Source: an uncultured Gammaproteobacteria bacterium
Lineage (GTDB): Bacteria; Patescibacteriota; Patescibacteriia; UBA9934
Direction: 5' to 3'
Assembly: GCA_964452565.1 (NCBI GenBank)
Contig: CAYVLY010000001.1
Coordinates: 386,897 to 450,896 of the forward strand
DNA length: 64,000 bases
Shown: piece by piece, positions 6,094 through 36,576 of the stretch
How the letters are laid out: each line of letters opens with the position of its first letter
How positions within the stretch are numbered: the first letter of the stretch is position 1
The notes under the pieces: generated by a model
Told to the model about the DNA's origin: nothing
What the model saw: only the letters and a program-made list of their open reading frames with translations
Databases searched by the model: none
Position numbers and translations under genes: made by a program

Positions 6094-7049
6094 TGAGCAA
6101 GAAAGCTATTGATCATCATCTGGAAGGTTTGCAAATACACAATCTCTATTTCGTCAGAGAGATCATATTGGAATACATACACCCTACCTTCAGCTTCAAC
6201 ATATGCTAGAAGTTCATCTGGGCTCATATAAGCTACGTAACCCTCTTTTGTGAGTGTTGTATCAAGGTCGTCATATTCCCCTTCTCCAAACGAATTTTCT
6301 GCATACCAATCCTCAAACACCAAATCTTCTAGACTAGATGCAGTAAGCCGTATAGTCGCTGTTGAATTTGTACGGAAGATTACCTCTTCAGTTTCCTGGA
6401 ACTCTGAGTCAACCTCAGCAGCTACTGTCCATTGAGTTGGATAAGTTAATGTGAATCCGAGATCCTCGCTCTCATACTCCTCTACAGATCCAGTATCTAA
6501 CAATGTTTGCGGAGCCTCGCCAAGTGGACTATAACGATGGAACACCTCATTTCCATCTAAGAACGTATCACCATCTGAATCTGGGTCTCGCGCATCAGTT
6601 CCATACATCACCTCTTCGATGTCTGACAAACCGTCACTGTCCAAATCTGATCCTGGACGAATCTCTTCCTCTTCTACAATTACCTCCTCCTCAATTATCT
6701 CACCCTCGACTACTTCCTCTTCTTCAATACCCTGAAGCGCAACCCAGCCAAGAACAGCTATAGCTATAACAAACAATATTCCAGCAATCGCCAAGATCCA
6801 AGGAAGCTTGCTCTTCTTTTTCACTGGAGTGACCGGCTTTTTCACAGGCTGTTTTGGAGGTACTGGCTTTGGAGTTGGTTTTGGTACTGGCTTTGGTGCA
6901 GCCTTAACAACTGGCCTCTTCTCTTCCTTTACAACAGTCTTTTTCTGCTTGAATGCCTCGGGCATTACATGAATCACAAAATCACTTAACTCGCCTTTCT
7001 TTTGTTTCTTTGCACCTTTTGGCGCTTGCTTTTGTGATTCGTCGAACAT
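6090..7049 (-). CDS. single-pass membrane protein: K/P-rich cytoplasmic N-terminus, TM, poly-Glu spacer, two bacterial TSP3-like EF-hand Ca-binding repeats, C-terminal domain
   Basis: TM segment LPWILAIAGILFVIAIAVLGWVAL; repeats DSDGDGLSDIEEV and DSDGDTFLDGNEV (D1,D3,D5,D9,E12 EF-loop spacing). Paralogous to 7155..7841, 7939..8850 and 35229..35909. Confidence 0.6.
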   Translation of the reverse strand: MFDESQKQAPKGAKKQKKGELSDFVIHVMPEAFKQKKTVVKEEKRPVVKAAPKPVPKPTPKPVPPKQPVKKPVTPVKKKSKLPWILAIAGILFVIAIAVLGWVALQGIEEEEVVEGEIIEEEVIVEEEEIRPGSDLDSDGLSDIEEVMYGTDARDPDSDGDTFLDGNEVFHRYSPLGEAPQTLLDTGSVEEYESEDLGFTLTYPTQWTVAAEVDSEFQETEEVIFRTNSTATIRLTASSLEDLVFEDWYAENSFGEGEYDDLDTTLTKEGYVAYMSPDELLAYVEAEGRVYVFQYDLSDEIEIVYLQTFQMMINSFLAQ

Positions 7050-7154: not shown

Positions 7155-7841
7155 TTACTTCGGTATCTCAAACAACTGACCCTCGCCATTTGGGTTATAA
7201 CCAGCAGCAACCTCTTGGCCATCTAGGAATCCGTCATCATCCGTATCTGCATCGAATGGATCTGTGTCATAAACCTGAACTTCCTCACGATCACCCAAAC
7301 CATCTTTATCTGTATCTACACTTTCAGGATCGGTCCCAGCTTCAATCTCCTCTGCGTCAGTTAATCCGTCGCCATCAGTATCCTGCTCTTCAAGCTCCTC
7401 ATCAACAACCTCCTCTTCATCGACATCCTCTTCTTCCTCTTCAATGTCTTCTACGATCTCTTCTGTTGTATCATCTACAACTTCGTCGGTTGCTACATCC
7501 TGAGTCATCAACCGATAAGCCAAGTAACCTGCTGCTGCAATAATTACAACTGCAACAACAACAATGACACCAACTTTAAAGACATTGGATATATCTGACT
7601 TTGGCGGTGCTGGTGGAACTGTTCCTGCACTTGGTGCCGCCTGTTGCGTTGGCGCAGTTGGCGTTGGTGAAGCTGCTGGAGTCGGTTCAGCCGCCTTAGG
7701 AGCCGCTGCTGGAGCAGTTGGTGCTACAGGAAGGTTCGTGGGCACACTAGGTGCATCTGCCTGAGCATCTGTAGGTCCATCAGTTTTAGCAAACATGTCC
7801 TCAACTTGAGGATCGTCTTTTTTCACTTGATCATCAAACAT
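7155..7841 (-). CDS. single-pass membrane protein with Pro/Ala-rich N-terminus, TM, acidic spacer and bacterial TSP3-like Ca-binding repeats
   Basis: DTDGDGLTDAEEIEAGTDPESVDTDKDGLGDREEV...DTDDDGFLDGQEV; the same MFD-start, TM and acidic-run architecture as 6090..7049. Confidence 0.6.
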   Translation of the reverse strand: MFDDQVKKDDPQVEDMFAKTDGPTDAQADAPSVPTNLPVAPTAPAAAPKAAEPTPAASPTPTAPTQQAAPSAGTVPPAPPKSDISNVFKVGVIVVVAVVIIAAAGYLAYRLMTQDVATDEVVDDTTEEIVEDIEEEEEDVDEEEVVDEELEEQDTDGDGLTDAEEIEAGTDPESVDTDKDGLGDREEVQVYDTDPFDADTDDDGFLDGQEVAAGYNPNGEGQLFEIPK

Positions 7842-7938: not shown

Positions 7939-8850
7939 TTACCTCAGTGGATCATATCCTCCAATCACCTCTGTGCCATCCTGGTATCCATCATTATCTG
8001 TATCTGAATCTGCTGGATCTGTTCCATGCTCAAATACCTCATCATAATCTAGTAATCCATCATCATCTGAATCTGTATCTCGATCGCTAGTTCCATAATA
8101 ATCCTCTTCATCACCGTCTAATTCATCAAAATCCCTGTCTCCTGGCCCAACCATCTCTAAACAAGCATATTTGTAATCTCGGATTCCAACTAAATAACAT
8201 GGGGCCGGATCACGTGTTTCAATTGCTTCTGCGATTCTCGCCCCGTATTCACATTGCGCATCAGATATAATTTCATTGTCGCAATTACCTTCGATAATTG
8301 CATTCAAAGCCCATAACGCACGACAATTATCTACTTTTTCTGAATCTGAATAATCCTCGCAGTCCTCATAGCCGTGATCTTCACCAAGTGTCTGGGTCAC
8401 AATAGCATCATTACAACTATTCTTTTTATCTTGATCTGCGATACCTTTGCAGTCATTGATATCTAAAGATGTAAGGGCAGATAATGTTGCGCAAGAATCA
8501 TAGTCCTCCCCCTCAAGCTCATCACAATAACTAATGTCTCCGGTTTGCTGAGCAAGCCTAGGAGCAGCGCTTGCAATACATTTATCTACATCATCCTCGC
8601 TTTGACAAGATTCTATATATAGCCTTGTATTGTTTTCAACGGTCTTATCTCCACCATTAAAGAATAGGCCAATGACAAATACTAGAAACCAAATTGCCAA
8701 TACAACCGCCACAATGGCTACGACAATCTTAATCACAAGCCCAGACTTCGCGCGTATCTTATCTTTCAAGCTTACAACCTTTGTACCCTCTTCATCCAAC
8801 TCGTACCAATCAACCTTACTTTCATCAAATTGTTTTTGTTTGTCTTGCAT
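7939..8850 (-). CDS. single-pass membrane protein with Cys-rich ectodomain and C-terminal bacterial TSP3-like Ca-binding repeats
   Basis: TM segment LVIKIVVAIVAVVLAIWFLVFVIGLFF; C-terminus DRDTDSDDDGLLDYDEVFEHGTDPADSDTDNDGYQDGTEVIGGYDPLR. Confidence 0.6.
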   Translation of the reverse strand: MQDKQKQFDESKVDWYELDEEGTKVVSLKDKIRAKSGLVIKIVVAIVAVVLAIWFLVFVIGLFFNGGDKTVENNTRLYIESCQSEDDVDKCIASAAPRLAQQTGDISYCDELEGEDYDSCATLSALTSLDINDCKGIADQDKKNSCNDAIVTQTLGEDHGYEDCEDYSDSEKVDNCRALWALNAIIEGNCDNEIISDAQCEYGARIAEAIETRDPAPCYLVGIRDYKYACLEMVGPGDRDFDELDGDEEDYYGTSDRDTDSDDDGLLDYDEVFEHGTDPADSDTDNDGYQDGTEVIGGYDPLR

Positions 8851-8862: not shown

Positions 8863-11800
8863 TTATTGAGCACACATATTTAAGTAGATATCTGAAAGCT
8901 CCACAGTTCCCTCTCCATTATATGCTGTTCTCAAAGTCACGGTTTGCTCATTGGATCCATCGCAAGAGAATGTAGTTGGTAATTCTATTGATCTGCTTAA
9001 TCCAGCCTCGATAGTAGTAGACTCAGTCTCACCATCAAATGTTAGTGAGATTGTTACATTAAGGATCGCATCAACAATTGCTTCATACATAGCAACCAAC
9101 TCATCAGATGTTGTTGCACTGTATGCGTATGTGATTCCATTGTCAGGGACTTCACAATCGTGATTACCCTCAGTTGTCATTGCTCCACAAGAATCGCTGT
9201 TGTCAGTACATTCCATACTTGACCACCTCTGCATTTGAGCAATCTCACAATCACTATCACTCAACACTGCTGAGAACACCTCAACACCAGCATCTTTAAT
9301 GTCATCAAGGATATTACTTACTCCTCGCATATATTCGGCTGTATCCATGACATCATCACCATCTGTATCTTCTGTATCGATGTGATCGAAGTATAAGCTC
9401 TCATAATCTGTGTTATAGATATTTCCATCTGTAAAAATGATCATGTACTCATTATCTGCATACCCAGAGAATCCTAACGCCGCGTCCTCGATTGACTCAT
9501 AAATAGGTGTTCCTGTAGTGGAGTCTACTACCAGCCCGCTGGTGATACTTGATTGGGTATCTGACTCCGTTGTTGATACTCCAGCAGAACTTGCAGCTTC
9601 AAGCATTAAGAACTTACCTTCTCCAGACGATGAGTAACTTGCCCAAGCAACTAATGGCTTAAACATGTCAATTGCTTGATCCCAGAATGACAGTGTTGCC
9701 AACTTTGTGTCTTTGATGCTTGGATCATAGCCAGTTGCACCTTCTGTTTCTGCTGGATCAGTTCCACCCAAACCATCATCGTCTATTCCACCATCATCAT
9801 CGTCATCTCCACAGATATCTTCGCAATCAGCCTCATCAAGGACAAGCTCTCCACAGTCACACTCAATTGGCTCTGGTACCTCTTCCTCACACTCATCACC
9901 AACTCCATCACCATCTGTGTCCAATTGTGATGGATTTGAATCGTCTGGACAGTTATCTTCATCATCGGGTATTCCATCACCATCTGTGTCTACAGGTGCT
10001 GTGTAGGTTTGATGCAGGCCACCAATATAAGCCCATCCAATTCCCATATCTGCTGAAACTCCATCATAAGCTTCATGTAGAGCTGTGATAGCATCACCTA
10101 CTGCTGATTCCAATACTTCGATTCTGGTGCTATCTCCCAAGTCTGAACTCATCGACTTTGACAGGTCAATCACAAACATAATCTCAACGTCTGGATACTC
10201 GCGATCATCATCATTAATTGTCATTGTAAGACCATCAGAGACTGTACACTCAGGAATATAAAGTGTAGATGAGTTTCCAGTACTAATAACTAGTCCAGAT
10301 GAATCAAATGGAGAAATGTCAGTTGTATAGGTTCGCTTTGCGCCAAGCTCATTGGTCTCAAGAGCGATGCTCTGCGCTGTATAAGTAAACGGACACATGT
10401 TGGCACAGGAATCATTGCAAACTGGGAGTGCGCAATCTGAATACTCACAATCACTATCTGCCATGCAGTGATCGCCATTGTCTGATCCTCCGTTACAAAC
10501 TCCAACCATAGTACAAGTATATGTAGTGCCCGTACTGCCATCTAATATTATCTCACCATCTTCATCAACTTCTACTGTCCCACCCTCATCAGCTACATCG
10601 CAGTAATCATAAACTCCATTTGTTGAATCATAGTAGTAATAAGAAACATCATCGGCATCGCAGACCTCATCTCCATTAATCTCACCGTCTCCACAAAAAC
10701 TTCCTGATGAAGTTACGTTCACGCAATTGTCATTACAATATGCACAGGTCGAGCCATATGACGCAGTACAGATCGTTCCGTTTGCACTTCCTTCATCGCA
10801 TGATTCTTCACCGTCATAAACGTATCCATCTCCGCAGATGTTCTCAGTACATTCGATCGTACACGAGTCAGTAGAATCGTCATTTCCGTCGTCACACTCC
10901 TCTCCATCATCAACTACACCGTCTCCACATGAGCCAGGAGCTATGCAGTCAATATCTGCCCAGTCATATGCCCACAAACATGTAGAATCATCACACGTCC
11001 GTGTTCTTGTTGTTTGATATTCAATTGATGAACAAATTCCGTCTGCCACACCACTGCTATCACAGTCTCCATCTGTATCACATGGTTCGCCCATCTTATC
11101 TGCATCTCCGTCTACACAAACGGTTGTGTAAGGACACTCATTAGCAGTGTCTTTTGTTTCATCTGTTGTGTCTGTCTCTCCACACTGACCAGTTGATGAG
11201 CTGCCAGAACCGGCTGCCACAATCATAATACAATCGCTATCCTCATCACATTTATCTTCATCTGTTGAATTTCCGCTAGTGCACAACATTCCAGAATAAG
11301 TATCTGTGGTTCCATCACAATCCTCTTCATCATCTGCGTCACCGTCTCCACAATATGGACCAGCACCTGAGCAATCCCAAGCACAAGTATTAGACGCGCT
11401 GGCATCATATACACCATTCAAATATGTACATGATCCACCGCCATATGCTGCACCAGAGGCAGTTCCAGATGATCCACAGTCGCAGGCCTCACCTCCAGCC
11501 AAGGTTCCATCTCCACAATATGTTCGGCTTGTATTGAGACAATCTGCTCCGCAGAAACCATAGCTTCCATTTAATGACCCGTCATCACAATCCTCACCTG
11601 TTTCTGTCACTCCGTTTCCGCAGCTTGTCGCATCACATGTTGTCGTAGTGCTATAAGCAGCACATGTCGAATCGCACTCATCTACATAATATCCATCATT
11701 TGTTCCGTCTCCATCTGAGTCACATGCTGTTGTACTTGATGTGGTATCTCCGACCTCACAAAGCTCGCCACTTCCAACTATTCCATCTCCGCAGATATCA

Positions 11801-14800
11801 GATGCTCCCCAGATTGTTGATCCATCACAGAATGCCGGTCCATTTTGGAACCCATCACCTGTTCCGTATCCTCCAATAATTATTTGCTCATCGTCAGTTG
11901 TGTCACTGTCAATATCTGAGAACCAAGAACCAGTTTTAAATTCAAGTTCTGCACCAATAACATACCCAGAATCTCCATATGCACGATAATGATAGGTTCT
12001 TGAACCTCGCGGACAAAGATATTCACCAGCAACCTCATCCACACATGTTGTCTCATCATAATCTCTATATCTTCCGGAGCCACATCCTTGATAAGAATCT
12101 AAAGGATCTGAGTCAACGCTTACACCAAGATCTGTTGCTAGAACATCATCCCAGGATCCCCAAACACTTGATGTTAATGATCGAACAAAACTTCCTGATT
12201 CGATCTGTGGGGTTGAACTACTCATATACTCTGCAAGATCTGTAACATCTCCTAGACGATCCATATCGCGCATGAGCTTTGATTTTATGTCAGCACAATC
12301 GTATCCAGTTGCAGTACAGTCTAAGTCTGATTCGCAACTCGTTGTATAGTTTCCAGCTGTTGAGCTATAGCAAAGTGCCATGTCATCTACATTTGTAACA
12401 AGAGACAAGTTCTCAAGCATCATGTCAAAAATATCAACAGCTGTACTGCTTGCACCGTAGTTATAAGAGATGATTGCTATGTTCGGATATAACGATCCAG
12501 TGACATAGTTTGGAACAGCCACATAGGTTGAGCGGCCATCTACCACTGCCTGGAATCCATCAATCGTTGTTTGTGTTGGATTACCTGAGAATCCGTTTGC
12601 GTAATACCATGCCATTGGACTTAGGTACGAGCTATTCATCACAAAACGAACACCAATGGCATCACCTGTTGGGCCATTATCATTAACTACATTAAAGAAA
12701 TATTCTTTCAAAACTTCAGTACTTCCACGCTCTTGAGCCATCACAACGCGCAACTCTGGATAATCATCATCAGTGTCGCCATCTTCACCAGCATCTCGAC
12801 AATAGTATGTTGAGAAATTCATCCATCCACGTCCGACACCAGCAGACACACCTGAGCCTGCATGTAATCCGTCAGCATTATCTTCAAATGGGAAGTAATC
12901 AAGAGCTGGCCATGGATTATCACAAACAACTATCGTAATGTCTTCGGTTCCACTAACTACAGTTGATTCACATGTAGCAGATACATACTCGCAATCAGTA
13001 TCAAGGTCGCAACTCTCACCACTAATCGAACACACTCCTGAAGAACATGTCTCCTGACACTCAGAGTCAGTTGTACAACCGGTTATTGATGCATCAGAGC
13101 TACAGTAGAAAGACTCGCCAGATGTATCTTCTGTAACAATTGCTTTTGTTGCAATGTTTGCTTCACCACTTGATCCTGTGGATGTGTAATCAGCAGTGGC
13201 GGCGCTAACAGAGCCAACAGACTCACTGCTTCTTGTTAGGAATGAACCAATGCCATCGTCATCATCGTCGTCGTCCGAACTCCAGCTTGTCCATTCCCAT
13301 GTATATCCTGAAATTGGCTCAATCGCCTGTGCTGAGCCTGTGTCGTATGAATAAGCTGTTGCAGTAAATGTGTGCTCCTCATCAACCTCGGTGAATGCAT
13401 TCGGGCTATCTTCGTCTCCATCAATGATGTCCACTTCATCAAGTCCGCAAATGCTCTGATATGTCTCAAAGCTTTGTGAAGCATCTCCATCCATTGCAAC
13501 TCCATAACTTGTCAGAACTCCATCCCGATCATCATCACCCAGAGTATCTCCAGTAACATAGATTGTATAACTTGCTTCTGCAGCAAGTGCCTGATCGTGA
13601 TTGAACACCACTTTATAAACGCCATCACCAACTGCACTTTGCGTGTATCCAGTGATTGGCAATATACAGTCTCCACTTGTTTGTGCATGTACGATTGGCG
13701 CAAAGATCATTGTAAATACATTTAATGCTCGCTGCCACCAAGAATCTGACGATCCGCCCAAGGCAATAGTTGAATGAGTACTTGGGCAAGTTCCGTCATC
13801 AGTAGTTGTAATGTCTAATACTATAAATACATTGCCTTCAAAGGTTGATGTTTCCATCTTCATATTGAACAGCCCATAAATCTCAGCATTCAAACATGCG
13901 TTAGAGCCATTCGGGAACAATTCCGGATCAGGTCGCTCCATGCAACACAGTGTAGTTGCAGGACCATAGCCATCATCGCAATCATCATCATCTTCAGCAA
14001 CACATGAAAGATATAGCGAGGTATATGCCGTTAGATCGTCATAGGTAACCTGAACAGTTGCTGTTGCAAGGTTTGTACTCATATCTACCTGCTGTCCAGC
14101 GTCAGTACTGATCAAGGCCAACTGAACAGGATCTGTATATCCATCAGGTCCTGCGCCGTATGAGCTACCTTCGCAAGCGTCCAGCTCCCCATAGCCAGCA
14201 ATTCCATCTCCACAAACTGAGGCTTCAGTGTAATAAATCGATGAGCCTGAAAGCAGACAGTCATCAGAACACCACTCTTCCCCATCACAATCCTCACCGG
14301 CACTTGTACTTGAATGTTGATCTAATATTTCATCGCCACACTCGCCAGAACTTCCAAAGCTTGCGTAATCAGCATCAGCACCTTCACGAATACAGCTTGA
14401 TGAGCACCCGTCACCGTCGGTTGTATTTGAATCATCACAAGTCTCATATGGTTCATCGATTGTTCCATCACCACATTCTGCAGCAACTTGTGTAATCGCT
14501 GTTGTTCCTTCATTAAGACAGATTGAGGAGCATCCATCGCCAGATGAAGCATTTCCATCATCACAGTCCTCTCCTCCTTGATCATCTTCATGTGCGATAT
14601 CGCTATTTCCACATGTTGCTCCAGCTGCCTGAGACCCCTCGTTTAAACATGAAGAAGAACATCCATCACCGTTAGTTGAGTTGTTATCATCGCATTCTTC
14701 CCCGGTATCAAGGTCCCCATCACCACAACAGGAAGAACTATCTGCATCGCAAGTGCTTGCAGCATATGTACAATCCGTATCTAGAGAACACTCAGTTTCA

Positions 14801-17800
14801 GAGATAGAACATGTTCCAATTAACGCCTCTGTATCAGTTATTTCACATACTTCCTGGCAGTCTGTGTCAGCACTACAAGACTCGCCAGTTGATGAGCATG
14901 TGTATACACATGCGTCGGTTCCTTCATATTGGCAAGATGAAGAACATCCATCGCCATCAACTGTATTCCAGTCGTCACAGTCCTCACCCGTCTCAGTGGA
15001 GCCATTTCCGCAGATTCCATAATAAGTCTCTGATCCGCTTGCAGTACAAGCTGATGTACATCCGTCTGGGATATTTGTTTGACCTACATCAAACAAACTA
15101 CTTGCAACTGTAACCCATTCCGCTACATCCTCATCACTAACAATAGGGTCAGTCCATGACCAGTCATAGCCATAACCACTCAATTCCTGACCTGCAACAG
15201 AGCAGCTATCTGGATCTCCATATGCAGTGACCTCGTAATGCTGTGTATCGCCTATTGCCTCAAGTGTCTGATTTTCAGGGGCAAGTGCGATGCTGCTTAC
15301 CAAACAAAGTGCATCATCGTCCTTTGATCCAAAAGTCCAAGAGAAATCATCTCCATAGTTTGTTCTAGTAAGTGCTACGCCACTATTTGATATAGCAGAT
15401 CCTGACACTACAACTCTGTAGAACTCAGATTCCTTCAAGCTCGTACCGTAATCGCTGTCCGCAATAGTCAATGTCACCTCTGAACAACCAACTGATTCCA
15501 CGCTGCTGCAACTAGCTGTAGTTGTTATTTCTGAAACCACCGCACATAGCTCATTTGAGCAGGAATACAATGTTATATAATCAGTTATTGAATCATCCAT
15601 CACCACATTAAATGTAGCGCTAATTGCGCCATTCACGCATGCAGATGAACAATCTGGCTGATAGTCGCTAACATACGGATCTTCAAAATTAACAGTAACT
15701 TCTGCATCACCAGTGGTTCCGCTATCTGATTCTTCTGCTGTCAAAATAGTAATTCCTTCTGCAACACCAACTGCAGATATGCAATAATCTTCTGTCATTT
15801 CCTCACAATCTGTAAGGCCAATATATGAATATGTGTCTACATCCCAATCCCAACCATAACTTGCAGGATTCAAGACCTGACATTCTTGCAATGGCAATGC
15901 ATTGAACTCAGAATCTTCACCCTGCTCTTCAATCGTGGACGAGGTTGGGCTGACCATCACCTCTTCAATCTCACAATCTGCTTCACTTGGACCTGTAGTA
16001 AATGTCCAAGTCACATCCTCCTCAAGAGTTTGGCCAACGCCTGTATCTGAGTACGATGTAAGATCGTCCGTCACCCAAACAAGATATGAGGTGCTGGTTT
16101 TAAACTTCCCATCGTTATAAGAAGAATCTAAAGTCCATGTAAACGATGTTCGCTCAGTACTCGATGAGGCATATACCGACCCGCTTACATCATCGTCATC
16201 AAAATCAACATTGCACCTGCTATCAGAGCACTCAAAAATCTTAATGTTGTCGGTCGAAATAGTATCTTCATCCATGACAGTACTAAAAGACGCTCTAATC
16301 ACTGTATTGGTGCACGACTCTGTTGTATAAATTAGGTTTGGAACTGCACTAACCAAATCGTCAGAACACTCAACAAGTAAAGTTGGTACATCTGGAATGT
16401 CGCCTGTTGAGAAATACCAAGCATAACCTCCAGAAACATCAGCCGCGACCTCCTCTTCAACAGTTCCAACTTCAAAATTCAATTCATTACTTTCTTCTAG
16501 TGCCGACGAAGTAACAGATACTGGCCCAGTCTGGGTACCAGAAGGAACGGTCACCGTTACACTATCATCATCCCAATCCTCTACCGTGCCAAAAACTGAA
16601 CTATAAAATTCTACTGATCCTGCTGTTGACCCCAGCCTTTGACCATAGATAATAATAGTATCGTCAACCTCTGCGATATCTGGATCAATCGCACAAATTC
16701 CAGGAGTGGGTTCATCGTCAGTAACTGTAAAGTCAATATCATCTGAATCAACTCCAGCTTGTGTTGTTATATAAAGGTCGTAATCCCCTGCTTCAACATC
16801 GCTTTCATTAGTAAACTCTTCTGGAACTATGATTGTAATCTCATCATCACTCCAGTAATCATCCTCACAAGCATCTGGGAAATCAACACTACCCTGCGCG
16901 ACATATCCGCTAGTTTGATCTTCAAACCAAACACTTCCAATGGCAGCACCAAAGTTTGTACCTGAAATAGTGACATACTGACCCACGCCACCCTCTTCAG
17001 GATCTATAGAATAAATTGTTGGTATTTCCTCATCGCTATACTCAACTCCAAAGCTTATTTCGTTCGAAGTTACTCCATCAACTGTTACAGACACGTCAAC
17101 AAATTCTCCTGCCGTTAACGACGGCACGGTCACGACCGCAGACGCATCTGACCATGTTGAATAGCTACTTGCTTCAGTTGTATCAAAATAAATTGATGAA
17201 TCGCCCACTGAATCACCGAAGCCGAGCCCTGATAGCGTAACCGCGTCTCCTACCTCAGCTTCATCAGGAGCTATGTTACAAAGATTTGGACGCTCAGTTT
17301 CATTAACATCAAAATCATCAATCAACGTTCCTTCATCATTGTCAGTTGAGTCAGTATATCCAGATGGCGAAACTTCAACAGTAATAGGCCCATCATCAGC
17401 TCCTTCTGGTACTTCTGCAATGATCTGATCAGACCACCACCCCTCACCACAGGTTGGAATGTCAGCCTCTACCGTGCCGCCAGCGCCATCAGAAAAATAG
17501 ACCGAGCCTCTTGTTCCAAACCCAGAACCAGAAATAGTTACATAAGTGCCAACTGCTCCGTTTGAAGGTGAAATGCTCTCGATCTCAGGATATGAAACAC
17601 ATGTGCCATCTTCGCATGTCCCACTTGCACAATCATCGTCCTCCTCACATGAATCGCCATCACATGAGCCACAACTACCACCACAGTCAGTTCCCTCTTC
17701 ATCTTCGTCCTGCGTTCCATTGAAACAATGCGCTGGCAAAATCTTAATTCGAACTGAATCTGTGTCTTCGTTTCCTGCAATATCTGTCACAGTAACCTCA

Positions 17801-18837
17801 AGCGTGTAACGAGTGTCCTCTTCAGTGTCATCTGTATACCAAGTGCTTTCAATGGTTACATCTGATAAGTCAGATCCGCTTGCTGATACAGTGTCAAACC
17901 AATCATCACCAGCATAAAAATCCGCGCTCGATATCTCACTGTCATCTGTTGCTGATACTTGAACTAAACTTGAACTGTCTGTTGAGATATTCTCGCCGCT
18001 CTCAGGATAAGTAACACTCACATCAGGATCTTCGGTGTCAACTAACTCACCTGTGGTGAAAGTTGACGTACAGTCTGAAACCGCACAATCAAGCGAGGTT
18101 CCGGTCGAACTTTCAATATCGCCGTCTACAGTAACGGTGTACTGGGTATTTTCATCAAAACAATATCTATCTTCGTTTGGCTCAGGGCATGCTTCAGATG
18201 GCATGAACTCAATGCTGTTTCCTGAAATCTCCAAAGTTCCACTTACCTCATCGCCTGTTTCAGTATTTGTAATTGTGATATTCCCTTCAACTGTATCTTC
18301 ATCCAATGTTCTACTGAACGTGACCTCAGCTACGACATTACGAATCGACACTTCGCCTTCTGGTGAATAACCCGCAACTGCAAACGAAGTTACTGAACCT
18401 CCACCATAAGAACCACCCGCCCCACTATCACTACTTGTATAATCGCCATCACCGCCTGTGGCTTCTAATAAGGCATTTAGCACAAACGTCGTAATCGACC
18501 ACGATAATAATATTATCGCAAGCCCAATAAACCCGTTGAGAAGGATCTTCTTTGCTTTATCTACCTTGTCCGCCTCACCTCTTGCCGTCATCCACATGAA
18601 ACCACCGTATAGCACTATTACAACCGCAATAACGCCCAGAACAGTCAGGAATGTCCTTATAATCTTCGCAACAACGATTCTAAGATCTTCGTCCTGCAGA
18701 CCCGATACATCACCCACTTCCTCGAGTTCGTCGACTTGAGCATGGGTTACTTGCATTGGCACTAAGACACCTCCTGTTATTGTAAACAGGACTGCAAGCG
18801 AGCTTATGAATAGAGTTAAACGTTTGAAAAACAGCAT
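8863..18837 (-). CDS. giant (3324 aa) cell-surface adhesin-like protein with N-terminal signal peptide plus two-TM TrbC/VirB2-like pilin anchor module and a multi-domain ectodomain
   Basis: Single uninterrupted 9975-nt ORF. N-terminus: signal peptide, then VIAVVIVLYGGFMWMTARGEADKVDKAKKILLNGFIGLAIILLSW (two hydrophobic helices). Ectodomain: Big_5-like Ig domains; IPT/TIG-like ISPSNGAVGTYVTISGSGFG; many Cys-rich repeats of the form CGDGxxDxGEECDDGNxxxGDGCSSxC (DUF4215/Myxococcus-type cysteine-rich repeat); a TSP3 repeat DTDGDGIPDDEDNCPDDSNPSQLDTDGDGVGDECE; a vWA domain with MIDAS motif VIDLSKSMS. Confidence 0.85.
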   Translation of the reverse strand: MLFFKRLTLFISSLAVLFTITGGVLVPMQVTHAQVDELEEVGDVSGLQDEDLRIVVAKIIRTFLTVLGVIAVVIVLYGGFMWMTARGEADKVDKAKKILLNGFIGLAIILLSWSITTFVLNALLEATGGDGDYTSSDSGAGGSYGGGSVTSFAVAGYSPEGEVSIRNVVAEVTFSRTLDEDTVEGNITITNTETGDEVSGTLEISGNSIEFMPSEACPEPNEDRYCFDENTQYTVTVDGDIESSTGTSLDCAVSDCTSTFTTGELVDTEDPDVSVTYPESGENISTDSSSLVQVSATDDSEISSADFYAGDDWFDTVSASGSDLSDVTIESTWYTDDTEEDTRYTLEVTVTDIAGNEDTDSVRIKILPAHCFNGTQDEDEEGTDCGGSCGSCDGDSCEEDDDCASGTCEDGTCVSYPEIESISPSNGAVGTYVTISGSGFGTRGSVYFSDGAGGTVEADIPTCGEGWWSDQIIAEVPEGADDGPITVEVSPSGYTDSTDNDEGTLIDDFDVNETERPNLCNIAPDEAEVGDAVTLSGLGFGDSVGDSSIYFDTTEASSYSTWSDASAVVTVPSLTAGEFVDVSVTVDGVTSNEISFGVEYSDEEIPTIYSIDPEEGGVGQYVTISGTNFGAAIGSVWFEDQTSGYVAQGSVDFPDACEDDYWSDDEITIIVPEEFTNESDVEAGDYDLYITTQAGVDSDDIDFTVTDDEPTPGICAIDPDIAEVDDTIIIYGQRLGSTAGSVEFYSSVFGTVEDWDDDSVTVTVPSGTQTGPVSVTSSALEESNELNFEVGTVEEEVAADVSGGYAWYFSTGDIPDVPTLLVECSDDLVSAVPNLIYTTESCTNTVIRASFSTVMDEDTISTDNIKIFECSDSRCNVDFDDDDVSGSVYASSSTERTSFTWTLDSSYNDGKFKTSTSYLVWVTDDLTSYSDTGVGQTLEEDVTWTFTTGPSEADCEIEEVMVSPTSSTIEEQGEDSEFNALPLQECQVLNPASYGWDWDVDTYSYIGLTDCEEMTEDYCISAVGVAEGITILTAEESDSGTTGDAEVTVNFEDPYVSDYQPDCSSACVNGAISATFNVVMDDSITDYITLYSCSNELCAVVSEITTTASCSSVESVGCSEVTLTIADSDYGTSLKESEFYRVVVSGSAISNSGVALTRTNYGDDFSWTFGSKDDDALCLVSSIALAPENQTLEAIGDTQHYEVTAYGDPDSCSVAGQELSGYGYDWSWTDPIVSDEDVAEWVTVASSLFDVGQTNIPDGCTSACTASGSETYYGICGNGSTETGEDCDDWNTVDGDGCSSSCQYEGTDACVYTCSSTGESCSADTDCQEVCEITDTEALIGTCSISETECSLDTDCTYAASTCDADSSSCCGDGDLDTGEECDDNNSTNGDGCSSSCLNEGSQAAGATCGNSDIAHEDDQGGEDCDDGNASSGDGCSSICLNEGTTAITQVAAECGDGTIDEPYETCDDSNTTDGDGCSSSCIREGADADYASFGSSGECGDEILDQHSSTSAGEDCDGEEWCSDDCLLSGSSIYYTEASVCGDGIAGYGELDACEGSSYGAGPDGYTDPVQLALISTDAGQQVDMSTNLATATVQVTYDDLTAYTSLYLSCVAEDDDDCDDGYGPATTLCCMERPDPELFPNGSNACLNAEIYGLFNMKMETSTFEGNVFIVLDITTTDDGTCPSTHSTIALGGSSDSWWQRALNVFTMIFAPIVHAQTSGDCILPITGYTQSAVGDGVYKVVFNHDQALAAEASYTIYVTGDTLGDDDRDGVLTSYGVAMDGDASQSFETYQSICGLDEVDIIDGDEDSPNAFTEVDEEHTFTATAYSYDTGSAQAIEPISGYTWEWTSWSSDDDDDDDGIGSFLTRSSESVGSVSAATADYTSTGSSGEANIATKAIVTEDTSGESFYCSSDASITGCTTDSECQETCSSGVCSISGESCDLDTDCEYVSATCESTVVSGTEDITIVVCDNPWPALDYFPFEDNADGLHAGSGVSAGVGRGWMNFSTYYCRDAGEDGDTDDDYPELRVVMAQERGSTEVLKEYFFNVVNDNGPTGDAIGVRFVMNSSYLSPMAWYYANGFSGNPTQTTIDGFQAVVDGRSTYVAVPNYVTGSLYPNIAIISYNYGASSTAVDIFDMMLENLSLVTNVDDMALCYSSTAGNYTTSCESDLDCTATGYDCADIKSKLMRDMDRLGDVTDLAEYMSSSTPQIESGSFVRSLTSSVWGSWDDVLATDLGVSVDSDPLDSYQGCGSGRYRDYDETTCVDEVAGEYLCPRGSRTYHYRAYGDSGYVIGAELEFKTGSWFSDIDSDTTDDEQIIIGGYGTGDGFQNGPAFCDGSTIWGASDICGDGIVGSGELCEVGDTTSSTTACDSDGDGTNDGYYVDECDSTCAAYSTTTTCDATSCGNGVTETGEDCDDGSLNGSYGFCGADCLNTSRTYCGDGTLAGGEACDCGSSGTASGAAYGGGSCTYLNGVYDASASNTCAWDCSGAGPYCGDGDADDEEDCDGTTDTYSGMLCTSGNSTDEDKCDEDSDCIMIVAAGSGSSSTGQCGETDTTDETKDTANECPYTTVCVDGDADKMGEPCDTDGDCDSSGVADGICSSIEYQTTRTRTCDDSTCLWAYDWADIDCIAPGSCGDGVVDDGEECDDGNDDSTDSCTIECTENICGDGYVYDGEESCDEGSANGTICTASYGSTCAYCNDNCVNVTSSGSFCGDGEINGDEVCDADDVSYYYYDSTNGVYDYCDVADEGGTVEVDEDGEIILDGSTGTTYTCTMVGVCNGGSDNGDHCMADSDCEYSDCALPVCNDSCANMCPFTYTAQSIALETNELGAKRTYTTDISPFDSSGLVISTGNSSTLYIPECTVSDGLTMTINDDDREYPDVEIMFVIDLSKSMSSDLGDSTRIEVLESAVGDAITALHEAYDGVSADMGIGWAYIGGLHQTYTAPVDTDGDGIPDDEDNCPDDSNPSQLDTDGDGVGDECEEEVPEPIECDCGELVLDEADCEDICGDDDDDGGIDDDGLGGTDPAETEGATGYDPSIKDTKLATLSFWDQAIDMFKPLVAWASYSSSGEGKFLMLEAASSAGVSTTESDTQSSITSGLVVDSTTGTPIYESIEDAALGFSGYADNEYMIIFTDGNIYNTDYESLYFDHIDTEDTDGDDVMDTAEYMRGVSNILDDIKDAGVEVFSAVLSDSDCEIAQMQRWSSMECTDNSDSCGAMTTEGNHDCEVPDNGITYAYSATTSDELVAMYEAIVDAILNVTISLTFDGETESTTIEAGLSRSIELPTTFSCDGSNEQTVTLRTAYNGEGTVELSDIYLNMCAQ

Positions 18838-18915
18838 GTAATGATTGTTTATAACAATTATTACCCTGAGCGACCCCTGCGATCTACACAGGGAGTCGAA
18901 GGGTGAATTCTTTAA

Positions 18916-20733
18916 CTAAAATGAACACTCTGATGATGATGGCACACCAGCACAACAATATGGATAACTAGACGATGTTCCGCACGATCCTCCACTTACA
19001 TCAGGCCCCTCACCTGGAACAAAGCAATTCTGATATTGATTCTTGATCTGATAATCTCCTGTACCGTCCATTCGTGGAACCTCAGGTATGTAGAAATAGG
19101 TTGTTCCACCATCAACGCTTTCCAAGAAAACTCCGTGATTGATCTCAACTTGAGATGCAACAACGTCTTTTCCTGTTTCTCCAGCATCAGCCCCATCTTC
19201 ATCTAAGCTATTCACGTAAATCCAAAACGCCATCTCGTGAACTGGTACAGGTTCCAGCGAAATATTTGTAGTAGTTAGAGTCGAACTCATCATCACGGAA
19301 TCAAATGTAATATAAACCTCCTGATCTAATGAAATGTCTGATTCAGAAATATCTGGGGAAATACTGTCAATCTCTGGAGCAGTTAGATTTATATCGTCAG
19401 TTGTAGTAAAGCTCCAGGCATAGTCATCCCCTGCCGTTCCATCATCATCTCCATCCAAAGCGTTCCCTGCTGTATCTGTAACTCCATCATAAGGATAGAT
19501 ATCAACCTGCGGTGGCTCCTCGCCTGGAGTTGCCGCAACTGCCGTGACCGAGATTGTCTGACCTCCAGGAAGGCAGTAGATTGTCTCTCCACATGAGTTT
19601 GTTCCGCATGGATCATCTGATGTGAAGGTTACAGTTCTGTACTGATTGCTTATTTCATAAGATCCAGCTGTTGGAGATCCGTCCGCTCCAACTGTTTGAA
19701 TGTTATCGAATCCCGAATCCGACTCCCTTGTTCCAGAAGCACTTGTTGGATCAACTGCTTCACTAAATGTAATCTCAACAACAATATTTCGATCATATGA
19801 GCCAGATGCAGCTGGAGTAACACTATTCACAGTTGGAGGTGTTAGATCGATTTCTGTTCCAACTTCAAACGACCATTCATATCCTCCAGTATCAAGAATT
19901 GTCTCGCCATCTACATTTTCAATATCATCATTTAGATAAACCGTGTAGGAAGTATCATCTGTAGATGAGCCTAGGAGCTCTGTTGGATCAAATACGAATG
20001 TTTTTAAATCATCTGTGAAACTAACATCTACCTCAGTACTTTCAAACGCACCGCTCTCACCATCTGCAGATGCATAGATTAAAATGTTATCTGTATTAAG
20101 CTCAGTGGACGTTGTGTCGTCAGATACATCGTCCGGAGTTCCAGCTGTATCATAGCCTGAGATAATTGCCTCAAGATCTATCTCATCCTTGAATGTTACG
20201 AAGATTTTCGTGTTGCGAGCGATCTCTGATGCATTACGTTCTGGATAGTGATCACTTATTCCCCCTGATCCTAACGAGCCAGAGAGCCGCTCAACGGTCG
20301 GAGTACTTGAATAACTTGTTGAATACGATCCAGTATCACTTATCGCGCCTGTGAGTGCATTGATGATGAACGCTGTTATTGCATATGCGCACAGTGTAAT
20401 GACAAGTCCGATAGTCGCATTTATCAAAATGTTTTTCGCCTTTGTAATTTTGTCTGGATCTCCTTGCGATGTCATCCATGTGAATCCTGCATACAAAACT
20501 AGAACCAAGAAAATCACTCCTAGAATTCCTAAGAACACTTTTATGATATTTCCGATCAGCTCAGGTAGTTCAGCGTCTGCAAGTTCAGATGCCTCAGCTG
20601 CAGTCTCTAAGCCTCCTGCAACATCCTGCGCCATTGCTGGAGCCGCGCTAAAAATAAAAAGCGCCAGCACCAAAAAACCGACACCTACCATGAACATTAT
20701 CGCTTGGGGTAGAAGCGTTTTGTGTTTTGTCAT
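18916..20733 (-). CDS. 605-aa surface protein with the same signal peptide plus TrbC/VirB2-like two-TM anchor module, followed by Big_5-type Ig-like domains and a Cys-rich C-terminus
   Basis: N-terminal IIKVFLGILGVIFLVLVLYAGFTWMTSQGDPDKITKAKNILINATIGLVITLCAY is paralogous to the giant protein N-terminus. Ig-like TPPTVNSVTPAASGSYDRNIVVEITFSEAVDPTS; C-terminal CGTSSSYPYCCAGVPSSSECSF. Confidence 0.8.
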   Translation of the reverse strand: MTKHKTLLPQAIMFMVGVGFLVLALFIFSAAPAMAQDVAGGLETAAEASELADAELPELIGNIIKVFLGILGVIFLVLVLYAGFTWMTSQGDPDKITKAKNILINATIGLVITLCAYAITAFIINALTGAISDTGSYSTSYSSTPTVERLSGSLGSGGISDHYPERNASEIARNTKIFVTFKDEIDLEAIISGYDTAGTPDDVSDDTTSTELNTDNILIYASADGESGAFESTEVDVSFTDDLKTFVFDPTELLGSSTDDTSYTVYLNDDIENVDGETILDTGGYEWSFEVGTEIDLTPPTVNSVTPAASGSYDRNIVVEITFSEAVDPTSASGTRESDSGFDNIQTVGADGSPTAGSYEISNQYRTVTFTSDDPCGTNSCGETIYCLPGGQTISVTAVAATPGEEPPQVDIYPYDGVTDTAGNALDGDDDGTAGDDYAWSFTTTDDINLTAPEIDSISPDISESDISLDQEVYITFDSVMMSSTLTTTNISLEPVPVHEMAFWIYVNSLDEDGADAGETGKDVVASQVEINHGVFLESVDGGTTYFYIPEVPRMDGTGDYQIKNQYQNCFVPGEGPDVSGGSCGTSSSYPYCCAGVPSSSECSF

Positions 20734-20852: not shown

Positions 20853-21416
20853 TCATAATACTACCAACTCCTCCCTCTTCTTCATTTCTTTTCCTTCAGT
20901 GTCAATCTGACTAGCTTCCTCTACATCATCACCTCTTGTGAATCTAGGGAAGAAGGTGGCTTCTATGTCTATGATGTATTGGTTCCAGTCTTCTCCATAT
21001 AGAGTGGTCGCTATTTCTTCTGTCTGTATCCATCTTATGGTTGTTCCGTTTGTATCTATGGCATATACCTTAGGATCAGACTGGATCTTTATTAGTACCA
21101 CTCCTGGGTTTGGTAACATTGGTTGTCCAAGTTCAATGGTGGTTAAAGTAGCGTCTGTTACTATTTTAACGTTGTCAAAGTTATCTTGGTATGTAAAGAA
21201 GGTTTGCATATCCATGAATGGACGTCTAACTGTCTCACCTGTAGTTTCGTCAGAATCTAGATAGTAAACTGTTGAGAAGTAAGCTGAACGTATATAGTCC
21301 CCTTCAGAGGTTACAGATATGTCTTCTAGTTCTCCTGTGACTGGAGATACTCCTGTTTGGCCTGTGGATGGCTCTGTTACTTCTGTAGCTGCATCATCAT
21401 CTGTAGTATCATTCAC
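20853..21416 (-). CDS. acidic hypothetical protein; ORF-track start is a GTG; reading frame is open and protein-like upstream as far as the TGA at 21648..21650
   Basis: No ATG, GTG or TTG in the 77 in-frame codons upstream of the listed GTG. The upstream segment encodes a BNR/Asp-box-like motif YSTDGGSTYT. It is in the same frame as the 1402-aa ORF. Confidence 0.5.
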   Translation of the reverse strand: MNDTTDDDAATEVTEPSTGQTGVSPVTGELEDISVTSEGDYIRSAYFSTVYYLDSDETTGETVRRPFMDMQTFFTYQDNFDNVKIVTDATLTTIELGQPMLPNPGVVLIKIQSDPKVYAIDTNGTTIRWIQTEEIATTLYGEDWNQYIIDIEATFFPRFTRGDDVEEASQIDTEGKEMKKREELVVL

Positions 21417-21647
21417 GACTCCATCGTCTACACCGTTAAGTGCACATGTTTCTGTTTCAAAGGTCGCTGTTATATCTGCAAGATCTGTACCCTCAATCTT
21501 AAACTGAAGTGTACTTCCTACTATATCTGTTGGAATAGTCCATGTGTAGTGTTCTGTATTTGTTATTGGGCCATCAATAAATGTGTATGTTGAACCGCCA
21601 TCTGTTGAGTAATGGATATTTACTAAATTAACACTCGAGGAGGTTAC

Positions 21648-24600
21648 TCATGACAGTGCGATATCTTCTCCTGGATTCAGACCTTCTGAACAGGTTCCTG
21701 TTGATGTAGAGGAAGATGAGATTGAGTCTGCACCACCTTCAAGAGAGCCAATCTCGGGAGAAGATGAGGTTGTTGGAGTACTTCCTGAACTTGCTGTTGT
21801 AAAACTTATGTCGTCTAGTGTTGTTTCATTACCAAAGTCATCTATGGCCCAAATCTTTGTGTAATATGTGGTTTGCTTGCTAAGGCCTGTGATGGTTGTG
21901 GTTGCGGTTCCTACGGTTGTTAGATCTGTGTCATCTGAATCATCCCATTCAGTAGCACTTGTTCTACCTTGAACATCTGACTGGCTAGTATCAATCCAGA
22001 TTTCATAATGATTAAAGTTTGAGTCTGTGGCTGCAGTCCAGGTAAACGTTGCGGTTGTGGTAGTCGCACTAGAACGTGCGAATGAAGCTAAAGACGCTGG
22101 ATCTACATTGTCTACAGTTATACTTGTTTTAGATGCAGTAGATCCGGCTGCAGTTCCATCATATGGAGTTATTCTAACCTGGGCAGTAGAAAGATCGGCT
22201 GCTGCCTCATCTGTAGCAGATTCCCATACAACAGAGACTGTATTAGCTCCAGATGAACTTGTTATATATCCACTGGCATTACCTACTTGGTAAGTATCAT
22301 CGTTTTCTACTGCAGGATCTCCATAAGTAGCAGATGCCTCTGCTCCTGTCTCAGATACTGTAGCTTTAGTCCATCCTCCGCCAATGTCGTATTCAACAAG
22401 GGCCTCTAGAGTATCGTCATCATCTGCATCATCCATGATGAATGTAATAGTCACATCTCCTGTTCCGTCTGTACCTTGAGTTGCTGTAACTGTTGAGACT
22501 GTTGGGGCAACATTGAAACCCCAGTTGGTATTATTCCCTCCATTTGTTGAACGTGACGGGCTTACAGCATGTGTAATTGTATTACCACCACTCGCATCTG
22601 AATCTGTGACATTAACATAATCTACAGAACTTGTACCTGAAACATTTAAAAGCCAGGTTGTAGCAGGACTAGAACTAGTAATTGTAATCAGGGCTGCATC
22701 ACCACCTGTTAATGTTAGGGTCCCAGATACTGTTGTTGTGGTGCTTGCTGTAAATACAATTGCCTTACTTGCTGTTGTAGAGGTTAAATTATTGAAAGAT
22801 GTAGTTCCAGAAATCGTTGTTGTCTTTGACACGTCGTCCAATGTCACGGTTCCTGATCTGGGCGTAAATGTCCCGGAGTTAGCCCAATCACCTCCCACTG
22901 TAATTGCATAGTTATCACCATCTGAAGTGTCTAGCGTTCCAGCCGTAATTGTGAGTGTATTATTTACATCTATAGCCTCATCTAGTGTATAAGTGCTACC
23001 AGATGAGTTAATTGTTAAATTATTGTATGGAGATAATGCTGAAAGTAATGATGTAGACTCTGTGGTTGCTGCATTATATGTAATTGTTCCACCTGAGTTA
23101 GTCCATGTGTTTGCAGTTTTAACAATATCAGAAGTCGTATCATTAGATTCAATCTGAAGTTCACCACTTGAAATTGTTACAGTATCTCCTCCTGCATCTC
23201 CAAAGGTATTTATATTTGTTCCCGTCTTCATCGTTCCACCACTAATAACTGTATTACCTGCAATGGTCATAGTGTAGTCATTAACATCAAAGGTTCCTGC
23301 AGATACTGTTAGATTTCCCACTATTGATTCATTTGCACCCAACTGAGCTATTGCACCTCCAGTTGTTGCAATTTCCAGGCTTTGATATGCCCAGTCCTGC
23401 ATAGCAACCGTTCCTGTTGATGAAACATATTTTACTGTAGAGCCTGAGTTCAAAGTTGGAACAGTATCATCTAAAGTCAAGGTTTCTGTTCCTCTCCATG
23501 CAAATGTTCCGCCATCTTCAACTACAAAATCACCAGACCAACCACTAACTGTCAAATCATAACCATTTATATTTAATTCCCCTTCTACAACAGTGAGGTC
23601 TTGCTCACTGTCATTCACAGTTAAATCAGATGCTAAATTAACAGTCGGTGTTGAAGTGGTGGTTCCTATTTTTATATGTCCGTCATATAAAGCTTCTGCT
23701 CCAGTTAAATCAAAAGTTTGAGCACTAGAGCCAGCAAGAGTCAATACAGAGTCATTCTTATCATAACTGTACCAATTTGATTCTATTGTTACATCTCCTT
23801 GAGCTTCAATTGTGCCCAATATCGTCCTTCCATCACTCATTAATAAATCACCTTCAACATACAGGGTATCCCCAGAGCCTAAATAAACATAATTAGAACC
23901 TCCACCACATACAACGCCCGTACCACTACAATCAAAGGTAACATCATTGAAAACACCAGAAGTAGCAATTGACGCCTTATCAAAATTCCAAGTGTCAGAA
24001 CCATTACCATCCCACATGAAAGTACCACTGTTATGATTAGAAACACCTCCAGCAGTATGGGTCCAACTGCCTGCAATAAATGTTGTACCAGTTGTTGCAT
24101 TAAAAGTTCCATCTGTAATAATCACATCATTTACATCTAATGTTCCTGTATTTCCATTTAATGTACCTCCAGATATATTTAAATCATCTGCCACCTCCAA
24201 TTCATATGCGCCAACATTCAAACTTCCATCAGTGAGTGTCAAATCTTGTCCTGAACTATTCATTATCAAGTCAGATGCTAAATTAACAGTTGGTGCTGCG
24301 GAACCAGTCCCTATTGTTACATGTGCGTTAAATAAAGCTTCCCCTCCAGTTAAATCAAAAATTTGTGTACCAGAGCTAGAAAAAACTAAAGGAGTGTCAC
24401 TGGTATTATTGCTATACCAATTTGACTCTATTGTTACATTTCCCTGGGCCTCAATTGTACCTGTTATTACTCTTCCATCACTCATTAATAAATCACCTTC
24501 AACATACAGGGTATCCCCAGAGCCTAAATAAACATAATTAGAACCTCCACCACATACAACGCCCGTACCACTACAATCAAAGGTAACATCATTGAAAACA

Positions 24601-25793: not shown

Positions 25794-25843
25794 GATCTTA
25801 TTGTTTCTATATTGTATCAAGCTACTATTTATAAAAGAAACAT

Positions 25844-35988: not shown

Positions 35989-36034
35989 TCTTTGTTCATT
36001 CAACCAGGCCCAGGGGCGCAAACCAGAGAACAAC

Positions 36035-36556: not shown

Positions 36557-36576
36557 ACCGTACCTCACCCCCACCC

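Follow-up and report, generated by a model that had tools for sequence, protein, structure and literature searches.

A lineage-wide gene cassette of Uhrbacteria-type Patescibacteria encodes a giant pilin-headed protein with a distal von Willebrand factor type A domain, a candidate for cell-to-cell attachment

The window analysed here is a stretch of 64,000 nucleotides (nt) from an uncultured bacterium (contig CAYVLY010000001.1, positions 386,897 to 450,896), and our subject is a gene cassette located on its minus strand. The core of this cassette consists of two open reading frames (ORFs), namely 8863..18837, which encodes a giant protein of 3324 amino acids (aa), and 18916..20733, which encodes a protein of 605 aa. 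All features of these two proteins mentioned below lie on the minus strand. Coordinates and lengths are those given in the original prediction, and both N-terminal peptides quoted there occur in the translations. Judged from their sequences, the two genes most likely encode Sec-exported surface proteins of a Patescibacterium of the Uhrbacteria type, a group placed in the GTDB class ABY1 (PMC12102498, Quinonero-Coronel et al. 2025). The giant joins a pilin-like N-terminal unit to a very long ectodomain with a distal von Willebrand factor type A (vWA) domain, and we consider it a strong candidate for cell-to-cell attachment. Its domain inventory as listed in the original prediction holds in Pfam, NCBIfam and a vWA profile.

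Both proteins possess exactly three hydrophobic segments, all of them within residues 1-125, that correspond to a signal peptide and two helices. The Sec-type signal peptide of the giant (aa 1-33, 18739..18837) is recognised by a hydrophobic peak and the family-conserved AxA↓Q motif, here THA↓Q, and that of the 605-aa protein (aa 1-35) ends with AMA↓Q; cleavage would occur at this motif in both proteins. The two helices form a hairpin at aa 56-126 of the giant (18460..18672) and at aa 56-128 of the 605-aa protein (20350..20568). Similarity to pilin-like anchors had been predicted for this module and is borne out by profile search, as PF18895 (T4SS_pilin, with T4SS for type IV secretion system) exceeds its gathering score of 26.6 bits in both cases, clearly in the 605-aa protein (41.0 bits, aa 54-122) and marginally in the giant (26.8 bits, aa 63-119). 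The marginal score is backed by a family-specific pilin profile that matches the N-termini of nearly all orthologous giants with E about 1e-25 to 1e-35, and orthologues carry a precomputed PF18895 annotation. The modules of the two proteins share 46% identity and were found in no other ORF of the window. In the giant the hairpin is the best-conserved stretch of the entire protein (conservation 0.69 among orthologues). The charges amount to -7 before helix 1, +1 to +2 in the loop and -3 to -5 after helix 2 (giant: flanks -7 and -5, loop +2; 605-aa protein: loop +1), a distribution that fits a topology with the N-terminus outside, the loop inside and the C-terminus outside, so that all downstream residues would be located outside the membrane.

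Free-standing Patescibacterial pilins of 125-138 aa can be aligned over their entire length with residues 1-135 of both proteins (34-50% identity) and stop where the Gly/Ser linker of the fused proteins starts. Due to this colinearity each of the fused proteins can be described as a whole pilin with a C-terminal extension. A profile of the unit comprising 94 positions was searched against a library of 1.84 billion proteins (E<=1e-3) and matched 62,656 cluster representatives. Among the best 150 of these 62,656 there are stand-alone pilins (106-160 aa), proteins in which 2-17 pilin units are repeated in tandem, and proteins with one N-terminal unit followed by a tail, the last group having total lengths of 268-1,795 aa and including in addition seven giants of 3,018-3,578 aa. 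The architecture therefore does occur on large surface proteins of the candidate phyla radiation, as had been claimed. When ten tailed proteins were scanned, PF18895 was passed in 10/10 and Big_5 in 9/10. P0241, with 17 matched stretches in 1775 aa, and about 80 others of these matches are ‘polypilins’ with tandem units in one ORF.

The ectodomain of the giant has an extreme composition, with 20.6% Asp plus Glu, 2.0% Lys plus Arg and 156 Cys residues. It starts with Big_5 and Big_7 domains (aa ~150-365, 17743..18390; Pfam, homology to the 605-aa protein) and a small Cys knot (aa ~370-415). The following IPT/TIG region (aa ~417-800, 16438..17589) is hit by Pfam TIG with 79.7 bits in three stretches and matches domain D of cyclodextrin glycosyltransferase (CGTase) in the PDB; according to a motif scan TIG-type units begin at aa 417, 517 and 606, and the translation itself suggests a fourth start near aa 712. 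Further immunoglobulin (Ig)-like domains of the Big_5 type are situated at aa 800-1265 (15043..16440), with Big_5 found in 33/33 orthologues. Cys-rich acidic repeats are arranged in two clusters, the first with six units at aa 1276-1560 (14158..15012) and the second with seven units at aa 2349-2830 (10348..11793). They belong to TIGR02232 (73.1 vs 20.8 bits in five stretches, NCBIfam) and, just above the limit, to DUF4215 (27.6 vs 27 bits, Pfam). The motif scan counts 13 CG[DN]x repeat starts, in line with the ‘more than ten’ expected, and the occupancy among orthologues reveals a lineage-specific insert at aa ~1301-1350 inside the first cluster.

Two regions lie between the clusters. An Ig-like region at aa ~1560-1900 (13138..14157) carries Big_5 in 12/33 orthologues and has no sequence homologue in the PDB. 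A conserved domain at aa 1960-2345 (11803..12960) has no sequence match in Pfam or the PDB, and a protein-database search with it was empty, a weak negative since the proteins listed from that database in two other searches were all <=1,019 aa long. Its structure was modelled from an 8-sequence alignment of giants obtained in the representative search, which gave a mean predicted local distance difference test (pLDDT) score of 62 overall and 76-92 in the core. According to this model the core may tentatively be seen as a novel module with a PsbP/Mog1/LpqN-like alpha/beta fold. No catalytic or toxin domain was detected in any segment of the giant with Pfam, NCBIfam and PDB profiles, and a reading as toxin or enzyme was rejected.

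The vWA domain with its metal-ion-dependent adhesion site (MIDAS) occupies aa ~2880-3240 (9118..10200) and is followed by a C-terminal domain (aa 3241-3324, 8866..9117) that is conserved among orthologues. Pfam makes no vWA call on the single sequence of the giant because an insertion of ~100 aa splits the domain. A profile of 32 orthologous C-termini searched against the PDB matches the vWA domain of collagen VI with E 4.8e-23. The first two places are taken by collagen VI and by PTMP1, a matrix protein of mussel threads; SpaC (6m48, 5e-13), PilB of S. sanguinis (7b7p, 2.6e-10), 3txa of group B Streptococcus (GBS), Mfa5 (6to1) and integrin I domains are matched too. Adhesive pilus subunits, namely SpaC, the tip-type GBS ‘cell wall surface anchor’ 3txa, Mfa5 and PilB, are thus among the best solved matches. 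The MIDAS residues are present in the giant as D2891-x-S2893-x-S2895, T3110 and D3137. Among orthologues T3110 is invariant and D2891, S2893 and D3137 are conserved to at least 90%, so the predicted vWA/MIDAS domain stands. The thrombospondin type 3 (TSP3) Ca-binding repeats (aa ~2948-3020, 9778..9996) reach E 0.007 with solved thrombospondin/COMP and get no Pfam call at E<0.1. The prediction of these repeats is probably right, but they lie in the lineage-specific insertion of about 100 residues within the vWA domain (aa ~2950-3050), which is found in less than 16% of orthologues (occupancy 0.04-0.16) and does not belong to the conserved part of the protein. A search with the C-terminal 585 aa returned hundreds of PF02412 proteins, which is strong support for TSP3 as compared with the weak match to thrombospondin/COMP, and only one true orthologous fragment, P0121. 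The C-terminus itself (...YLNMCAQ) contains neither an LPXTG motif nor a hydrophobic or transmembrane segment, unlike sortase-anchored proteins.

The 605-aa protein comprises the signal peptide, an acidic N-terminus, the hairpin, a linker, Ig-like domains (Big_5 three times in Pfam) and a conserved Cys-rich C-terminus. An AlphaFold2 model built with 63 homologues (mean pLDDT 85) shows helices at 56-87 and 93-128, a disordered linker of low confidence and then the Ig-like domains. Foldseek neighbours of this model are generic Ig-like stacks, with the S-layer protein SbsC as best match besides the BIg domains of LdtMt2, at a template modelling (TM) score of about 0.15. Paralogy with the giant is real (BLASTP E 5e-28, 30% identity in 477 columns), but it is confined to the N-terminal ~420-460 residues, i.e. 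signal peptide, hairpin and first Ig-like domains.

In database searches 616 homologues of the 605-aa protein were found. The 120 best of these 616 are nearly all full-length (~570-650 aa) with at least 49% identity, and the organisms, as far as they bear a name, are Uhrbacteria, Parcubacteria or Patescibacteria. Some members are publicly annotated as ‘pilin’, ‘Ig-like domain-containing protein’ or ‘Type IV secretion system pilin/Bacterial Ig-like domain’. In a scan with one genome per species the 605-aa protein was detected in 138 genomes, from which 80 loci, mostly of Uhrbacteria, were retrieved. In essentially all 80 loci the gene for the ~600-aa protein (p600) is directly followed by a pilin-headed ORF of ~2,900-3,500 aa, and the gene order that is kept reads hisS ... 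yqeY, p600, giant, TSP3 genes, with ybeY at the end seen once. About half of the cassette-bearing representative metagenome-assembled genomes (MAGs; L005-L084) go by the title ‘uncultured Gammaproteobacteria bacterium’, which is evidently a placeholder or a wrong label.

Since the window is metagenome-derived, its sequence rich in repeats and a neighbouring large gene interrupted by an in-frame stop, one could think of the giant ORF as an artefact of assembly or annotation in which several genes were joined. This explanation has a negligible probability. Altogether 43 complete giants of 2,887-3,487 aa from independent assemblies are colinear with the giant of the window, with 34-60% identity over ~2,900 residues and the same domains at start and end, and the seven further giants of 3,018-3,578 aa come from an independent protein library. 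Across 59 loci the median identities are 64% for HisS, 48% for YqeY, 49% for p600 and 40% for the giant, and divergence correlates with that of HisS (rho 0.79 for p600 and 0.74 for the giant). As their divergence tracks HisS, the two genes are core-like and vertically inherited and not hypervariable, and co-variation with host range consequently looks unpromising.

Three genes for membrane proteins follow the giant on the same strand, separated by gaps of 12, 97 and 105 nt. The original prediction had placed the giant downstream of them, which is the reverse of the true order, for all are encoded on the minus strand and the giant is transcribed before them. The first gene (7939..8850, syntenic in 42 loci) starts 12 nt past the stop of the giant and encodes a single-pass membrane protein of 303 aa with a Cys-rich acidic ectodomain and two C-terminal TSP3_bac repeats. 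The second (7155..7841) encodes a single-pass protein of 228 aa with a Pro/Ala-rich cytoplasmic tail, an acidic ectodomain and three TSP3_bac repeats. The third (6090..7049), which overlaps the start of ybeY by 4 nt, encodes a single-pass protein of 319 aa; its cytoplasmic tail is rich in Lys and Pro (+14) and its ectodomain is acidic. TSP3_bac (PF18884) is above threshold in the 228-aa protein (50.9 bits) and the 303-aa protein (29 bits); the 319-aa protein has no Pfam match, just a visible TSP3-like stretch of the DxDxDG type and a weak match to a CglD region. The net charge of the three ectodomains ranges from -47 to -49. A scan for promoters and terminators yielded fewer sites than in shuffled sequence, so the operon structure is deduced solely from the short intergenic gaps. 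Beyond the TSP3 genes follow ybeY, dagK, ftsA and ftsZ, and upstream of the 605-aa gene there is a gene for a beta-helix-like surface protein of ~1,660 aa with one TGA, and then yqeY.

All five ectodomains of the cassette are strongly acidic and carry repeats of a Ca-binding type, and it could be supposed that the five proteins form a structural scaffold of the envelope, i.e. a Ca2+-bridged acidic coat or fibrillar layer of S-layer-like character that serves envelope integrity or shape, with the vWA domain mediating self-assembly. The core-like vertical conservation of the cassette and its fixed place between yqeY and ybeY-dagK-ftsA-ftsZ in about 80 species would suit such a role, although the proximity of ftsA and ftsZ may be coincidence. 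Likewise vWA domains also act in matrix self-assembly, as in collagen VI and PTMP1, the top two matches of the profile. Foldseek ranks an S-layer protein, SbsC, first among the matches of the 605-aa model, though with a low TM score, and the match reflects generic Ig-like domains. Moreover, Pfam detects neither SLH nor another known domain for S-layer anchoring in the giant or the 605-aa protein, and a single rod of 3,300 aa with one distal binding domain suits a fibre better than a lattice. We regard the scaffold as distinctly unlikely.

The explanation we favour, to which we give about an even chance, is that the cassette encodes a hairpin-anchored fibre, stiffened by Ca2+ and disulfides, whose distal MIDAS vWA head binds a ligand of another cell. 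It builds on the sequence architecture, the topology signals, the vWA/MIDAS domain, the lineage-wide synteny and the vertical inheritance, and from these we infer surface exposure, Ca2+ dependence, a ligand and interaction among the cassette proteins. The hairpin would keep the giant in the cytoplasmic membrane, and the rod, stiffened by disulfides and probably Ca2+, would hold the vWA head far from the cell. By rough estimate with about 4 nm per Ig-sized domain, the extended rod could have a length in the order of 100 nm. A metal ion bound at the MIDAS might then bind an acidic ligand on another surface, most plausibly that of the cell which carries the episymbiont, and the 605-aa paralogue together with the three acidic single-pass TSP3 proteins would be likely partners at the base of the fibre.

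Several observations do not sit easily with an attachment fibre. Adhesins that are specific for a host often evolve rapidly, in contrast to the pair, which behaves like core genes. The ligand could hence be a conserved one, or it may be no host molecule. The hairpin, as the best-conserved part of the giant and indistinguishable from free-standing pilins, is under more constraint than a passive anchor would need. The cassette lies among housekeeping and division genes and not among genes of secretion or pili, and the central domains of the giant are devoid of characterised homologues, which leaves room for other activities.

The constraint on the hairpin leads to the most serious competing explanation, which differs from the favoured one only in what the hairpin does. 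Both proteins would be true modular conjugative-type pilins. A T4SS of the monoderm type would pull their hairpins out of the membrane and polymerise them with small free-standing pilins encoded elsewhere, and the VirB2-like pilus formed in this way would bear the Ig stack and the vWA-tipped giant as minor or tip subunits. We consider this unlikely. The fused units are complete, colinear with free-standing pilins and, in the giant, better conserved than any other segment. In the most distant relatives (~36% identity) a free-standing pilin gene of 123-140 aa lies between the ~645-aa gene and the giant (L079:11902-12288; L080:6439-6858; L082:11870-12238), which results in a three-gene pilin array. 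For two Uhrbacteria assemblies with the cassette, L062 and L006, VirB4 is recorded elsewhere in the genome (PMC12102498 Table S1), and arrays of small VirB2-like pilins are essential in Ca. Southlakia epibionticum (PMC10633639, Wang et al. 2023; PMC12857230). Modular type IV pilins and the vWA tip adhesins of sortase pili offer analogies for such a design. F-pilin, too, accepts extensions at its C-terminus, which are then displayed on the F pilus.

The kinship of the PF18895 unit with classical conjugative pilins is distant, and only in this sense can the label ‘TrbC/VirB2-type’ of the original prediction be maintained. PF04956 (TrbC/VirB2) scores 17.2 bits in the 605-aa protein, below its gathering score of 27.9 bits, and has no match in the giant (Pfam), while some orthologues carry a weak precomputed match. 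The pilin profile found no solved conjugative pilin in the PDB, just spurious matches to designed ‘Pizza’ repeat proteins. Against NF045849 the hairpin reaches 35.2 and 27.3 bits, and it also matches pLS20_p028 (NF045890), all sub-threshold (NCBIfam cut-offs 40 and 150). A tblastn search with the unit hit a 151-aa ‘Mbov_0395 family pilin-like conjugal transfer protein’ (E 1e-4) on a plasmid of Bacillota, where the gene of a VirB4-like ATPase is found at a distance of 4 kb, and this weak relationship counts in favour of polymerising pilins. The plasmid, an 898-kb replicon of Pontibacillus (L085, NZ_CP062975.1 343104-361241), gave the sole match to the hairpin in a plasmid collection; in its cluster the 151-aa pilin-like gene is accompanied by the VirB4-like ATPase, a member of the CD1110 family, and by a large endopeptidase of peptidoglycan.

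The genomic context speaks against polymerisation. No VirB4, VirB6 or coupling protein, and no T4SS machinery, was found within the 64-kb window, and no further pilin-module gene was seen in the +/-10 kb flanks of the 80 loci, which were screened with the proteins of the window and the pilin profile (VirB4 itself was not searched for). Furthermore, an appendage of 3,200 residues per subunit sterically precludes a homopolymer and would permit sparse or tip incorporation only, and in the literature no demonstrated pilus of a PF18895 protein was found. With 605 and 3324 aa both proteins exceed the size of conjugative VirB2/TrbC pilins (mature ~70-120 aa). With a Sec-type AxA↓Q signal and two helices they are no members of the type IV (class III) modular pilins, which have a prepilin-peptidase signal and a single helix, although they work in a similar manner.

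Host recognition and attachment of Patescibacteria are largely unknown beyond Saccharibacteria, and the function of their abundant and sometimes essential VirB2-like pilins is an open question. The cassette provides a concrete lineage-wide target in an uncultivated class, consisting of a giant rod that is fused to a pilin unit and has one identifiable binding site, the MIDAS vWA domain, together with a short paralogue and three acidic membrane partners of a Ca-binding type. At the N-terminus of ectodomains of 200 to 3,500 residues the PF18895 unit serves generally as a carrier, which recasts the family, known for its ‘pilin arrays’, as a modular system of display. Were polymerisation demonstrated, modular pilins, a concept known for type IV pili, would also exist among the conjugative-type pilins of a monoderm. 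It is rather doubtful that the cassette represents the first recognised modular conjugative-type (VirB2-like) pilins, with a T4SS of the monoderm type, devoid of a relaxase and essential in a cultured relative, that builds a pilus from small pilins and inserts the fused pilins of 600 and 3,300 aa as base or tip subunits. Were this true, the Patescibacterial ‘T4SS pilus’ would here be a host-grappling organelle with a vWA head, and the fusion of pilin and appendage a general design with thousands of uses in the phylum.

The rest of the window has mainly housekeeping character, with hisS, lepB, a LytR-family gene, der, dprA, a Mur ligase gene and topA as well as relA/spoT, parAB, a PPDK-like gene, a D-Ala-D-Ala carboxypeptidase gene and aspS. 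The interrupted gene upstream of the cassette (20853..25856, minus strand) consists of ORFs of 1402 and 187 aa that represent one frame split by an in-frame TGA at 21648..21650. Four orthologues have Trp (TGG) at this position. UGA recoding was rejected as TGA terminates ftsA, dprA and other conserved genes, and the TGA is thus a nonsense mutation or sequencing error. The protein is signal-anchored, contains beta-helix-like repeats, an exact internal duplication of ~130 aa and a weak, sub-threshold match to fn3 near the C-terminus, and is present in close relatives only. A GC-rich island at ~36000..37900 (56.5% vs about 43% GC) includes two Arg-rich hypothetical ORFs (35960..36556, 198 aa; 36761..37747, 328 aa) and several overlapping ORFs. 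The 328-aa ORF has no Pfam match, a non-coding RNA was rejected as no Rfam match was found at 36-38 kb, and the island may have been acquired horizontally. Close to it (35229..35909, plus strand) and unlinked to the cassette, a fourth small acidic protein (226 aa) is encoded that has TSP3_bac repeats; its N-terminus resembles that of a lipoprotein and ends with GC. The genes parA and parB are ~26 kb away from the cassette, and in a complete 886-kb chromosome (L066, OZ246416.1 1-14936) ~3 kb separate the start of the cassette from base 1 of the record. Like reported T4SS loci of other Patescibacteria, the cassette may be origin-proximal.

Full-text literature searches and a survey of giant genes retrieved no published description of PF18895 units fused to large ectodomains or of the cassette. 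VirB2-like pilins (PF18895, PF04956) are widespread in Patescibacteria and form arrays of 2-11 genes that are frequently close to virB4; the same 2025 survey did not detect adhesins such as PrgB (PMC12102498). Proteins with T4SS-pilin domains are among the most highly expressed unknown genes of cultured parasitic Paceibacterales/Patescibacteria (PMC10936435), which agrees with the attachment fibre that we favour. The cassette shares with the pilin arrays of S. epibionticum and TM7x the Pfam family, the phylum and the complete unit (34-50% identity to free-standing members). However, those pilins are small, arrayed and often located beside virB4, whereas the units of the cassette carry ectodomains of 470 or 3,200 aa in a housekeeping neighbourhood. 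The Mbov_0395 and pLS20_p028 proteins (NF045849, NF045890) show weak similarity in the hairpin, but they are small and encoded in conjugation clusters.

PilB of S. sanguinis, a modular type IV pilin, is alike in having a pilin unit and a C-terminal adhesive vWA module. It belongs to an unrelated pilin class with class III signal, one N-terminal helix and type IV pilus machinery, in contrast to the Sec-type AxA signal and hairpin of the cassette proteins, and the appendage of the giant is about ten times larger than that of modular type IV pilins such as PilB. SpaC (6m48), GBS 3txa and Mfa5 (6to1) likewise present a MIDAS vWA domain at the distal end of an Ig-like filament, but their anchoring and polymerisation depend on sortases or on type V strand exchange, whereas the giant lacks LPXTG or another C-terminal anchor and its stalk is one polypeptide. 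The very large fibrillar RTX adhesins of Gram-negative bacteria (LapA, SiiE and MpIBP type), which are stiffened by Ca2+, combine N-terminal retention, an Ig-like rod, acidic Ca-binding and ligand domains, some of them vWA, near the C-terminus. They follow type I secretion via a C-terminal signal and are retained in an outer-membrane pore. The giant differs from them in its N-terminal Sec signal, its membrane hairpin, its monoderm-type cell and in TIGR02232 instead of RTX repeats. Altogether, we regard the cassette as a variant that combines known kinds, namely Patescibacterial VirB2-like pilins, modular pilins and giant vWA-tipped adhesins.

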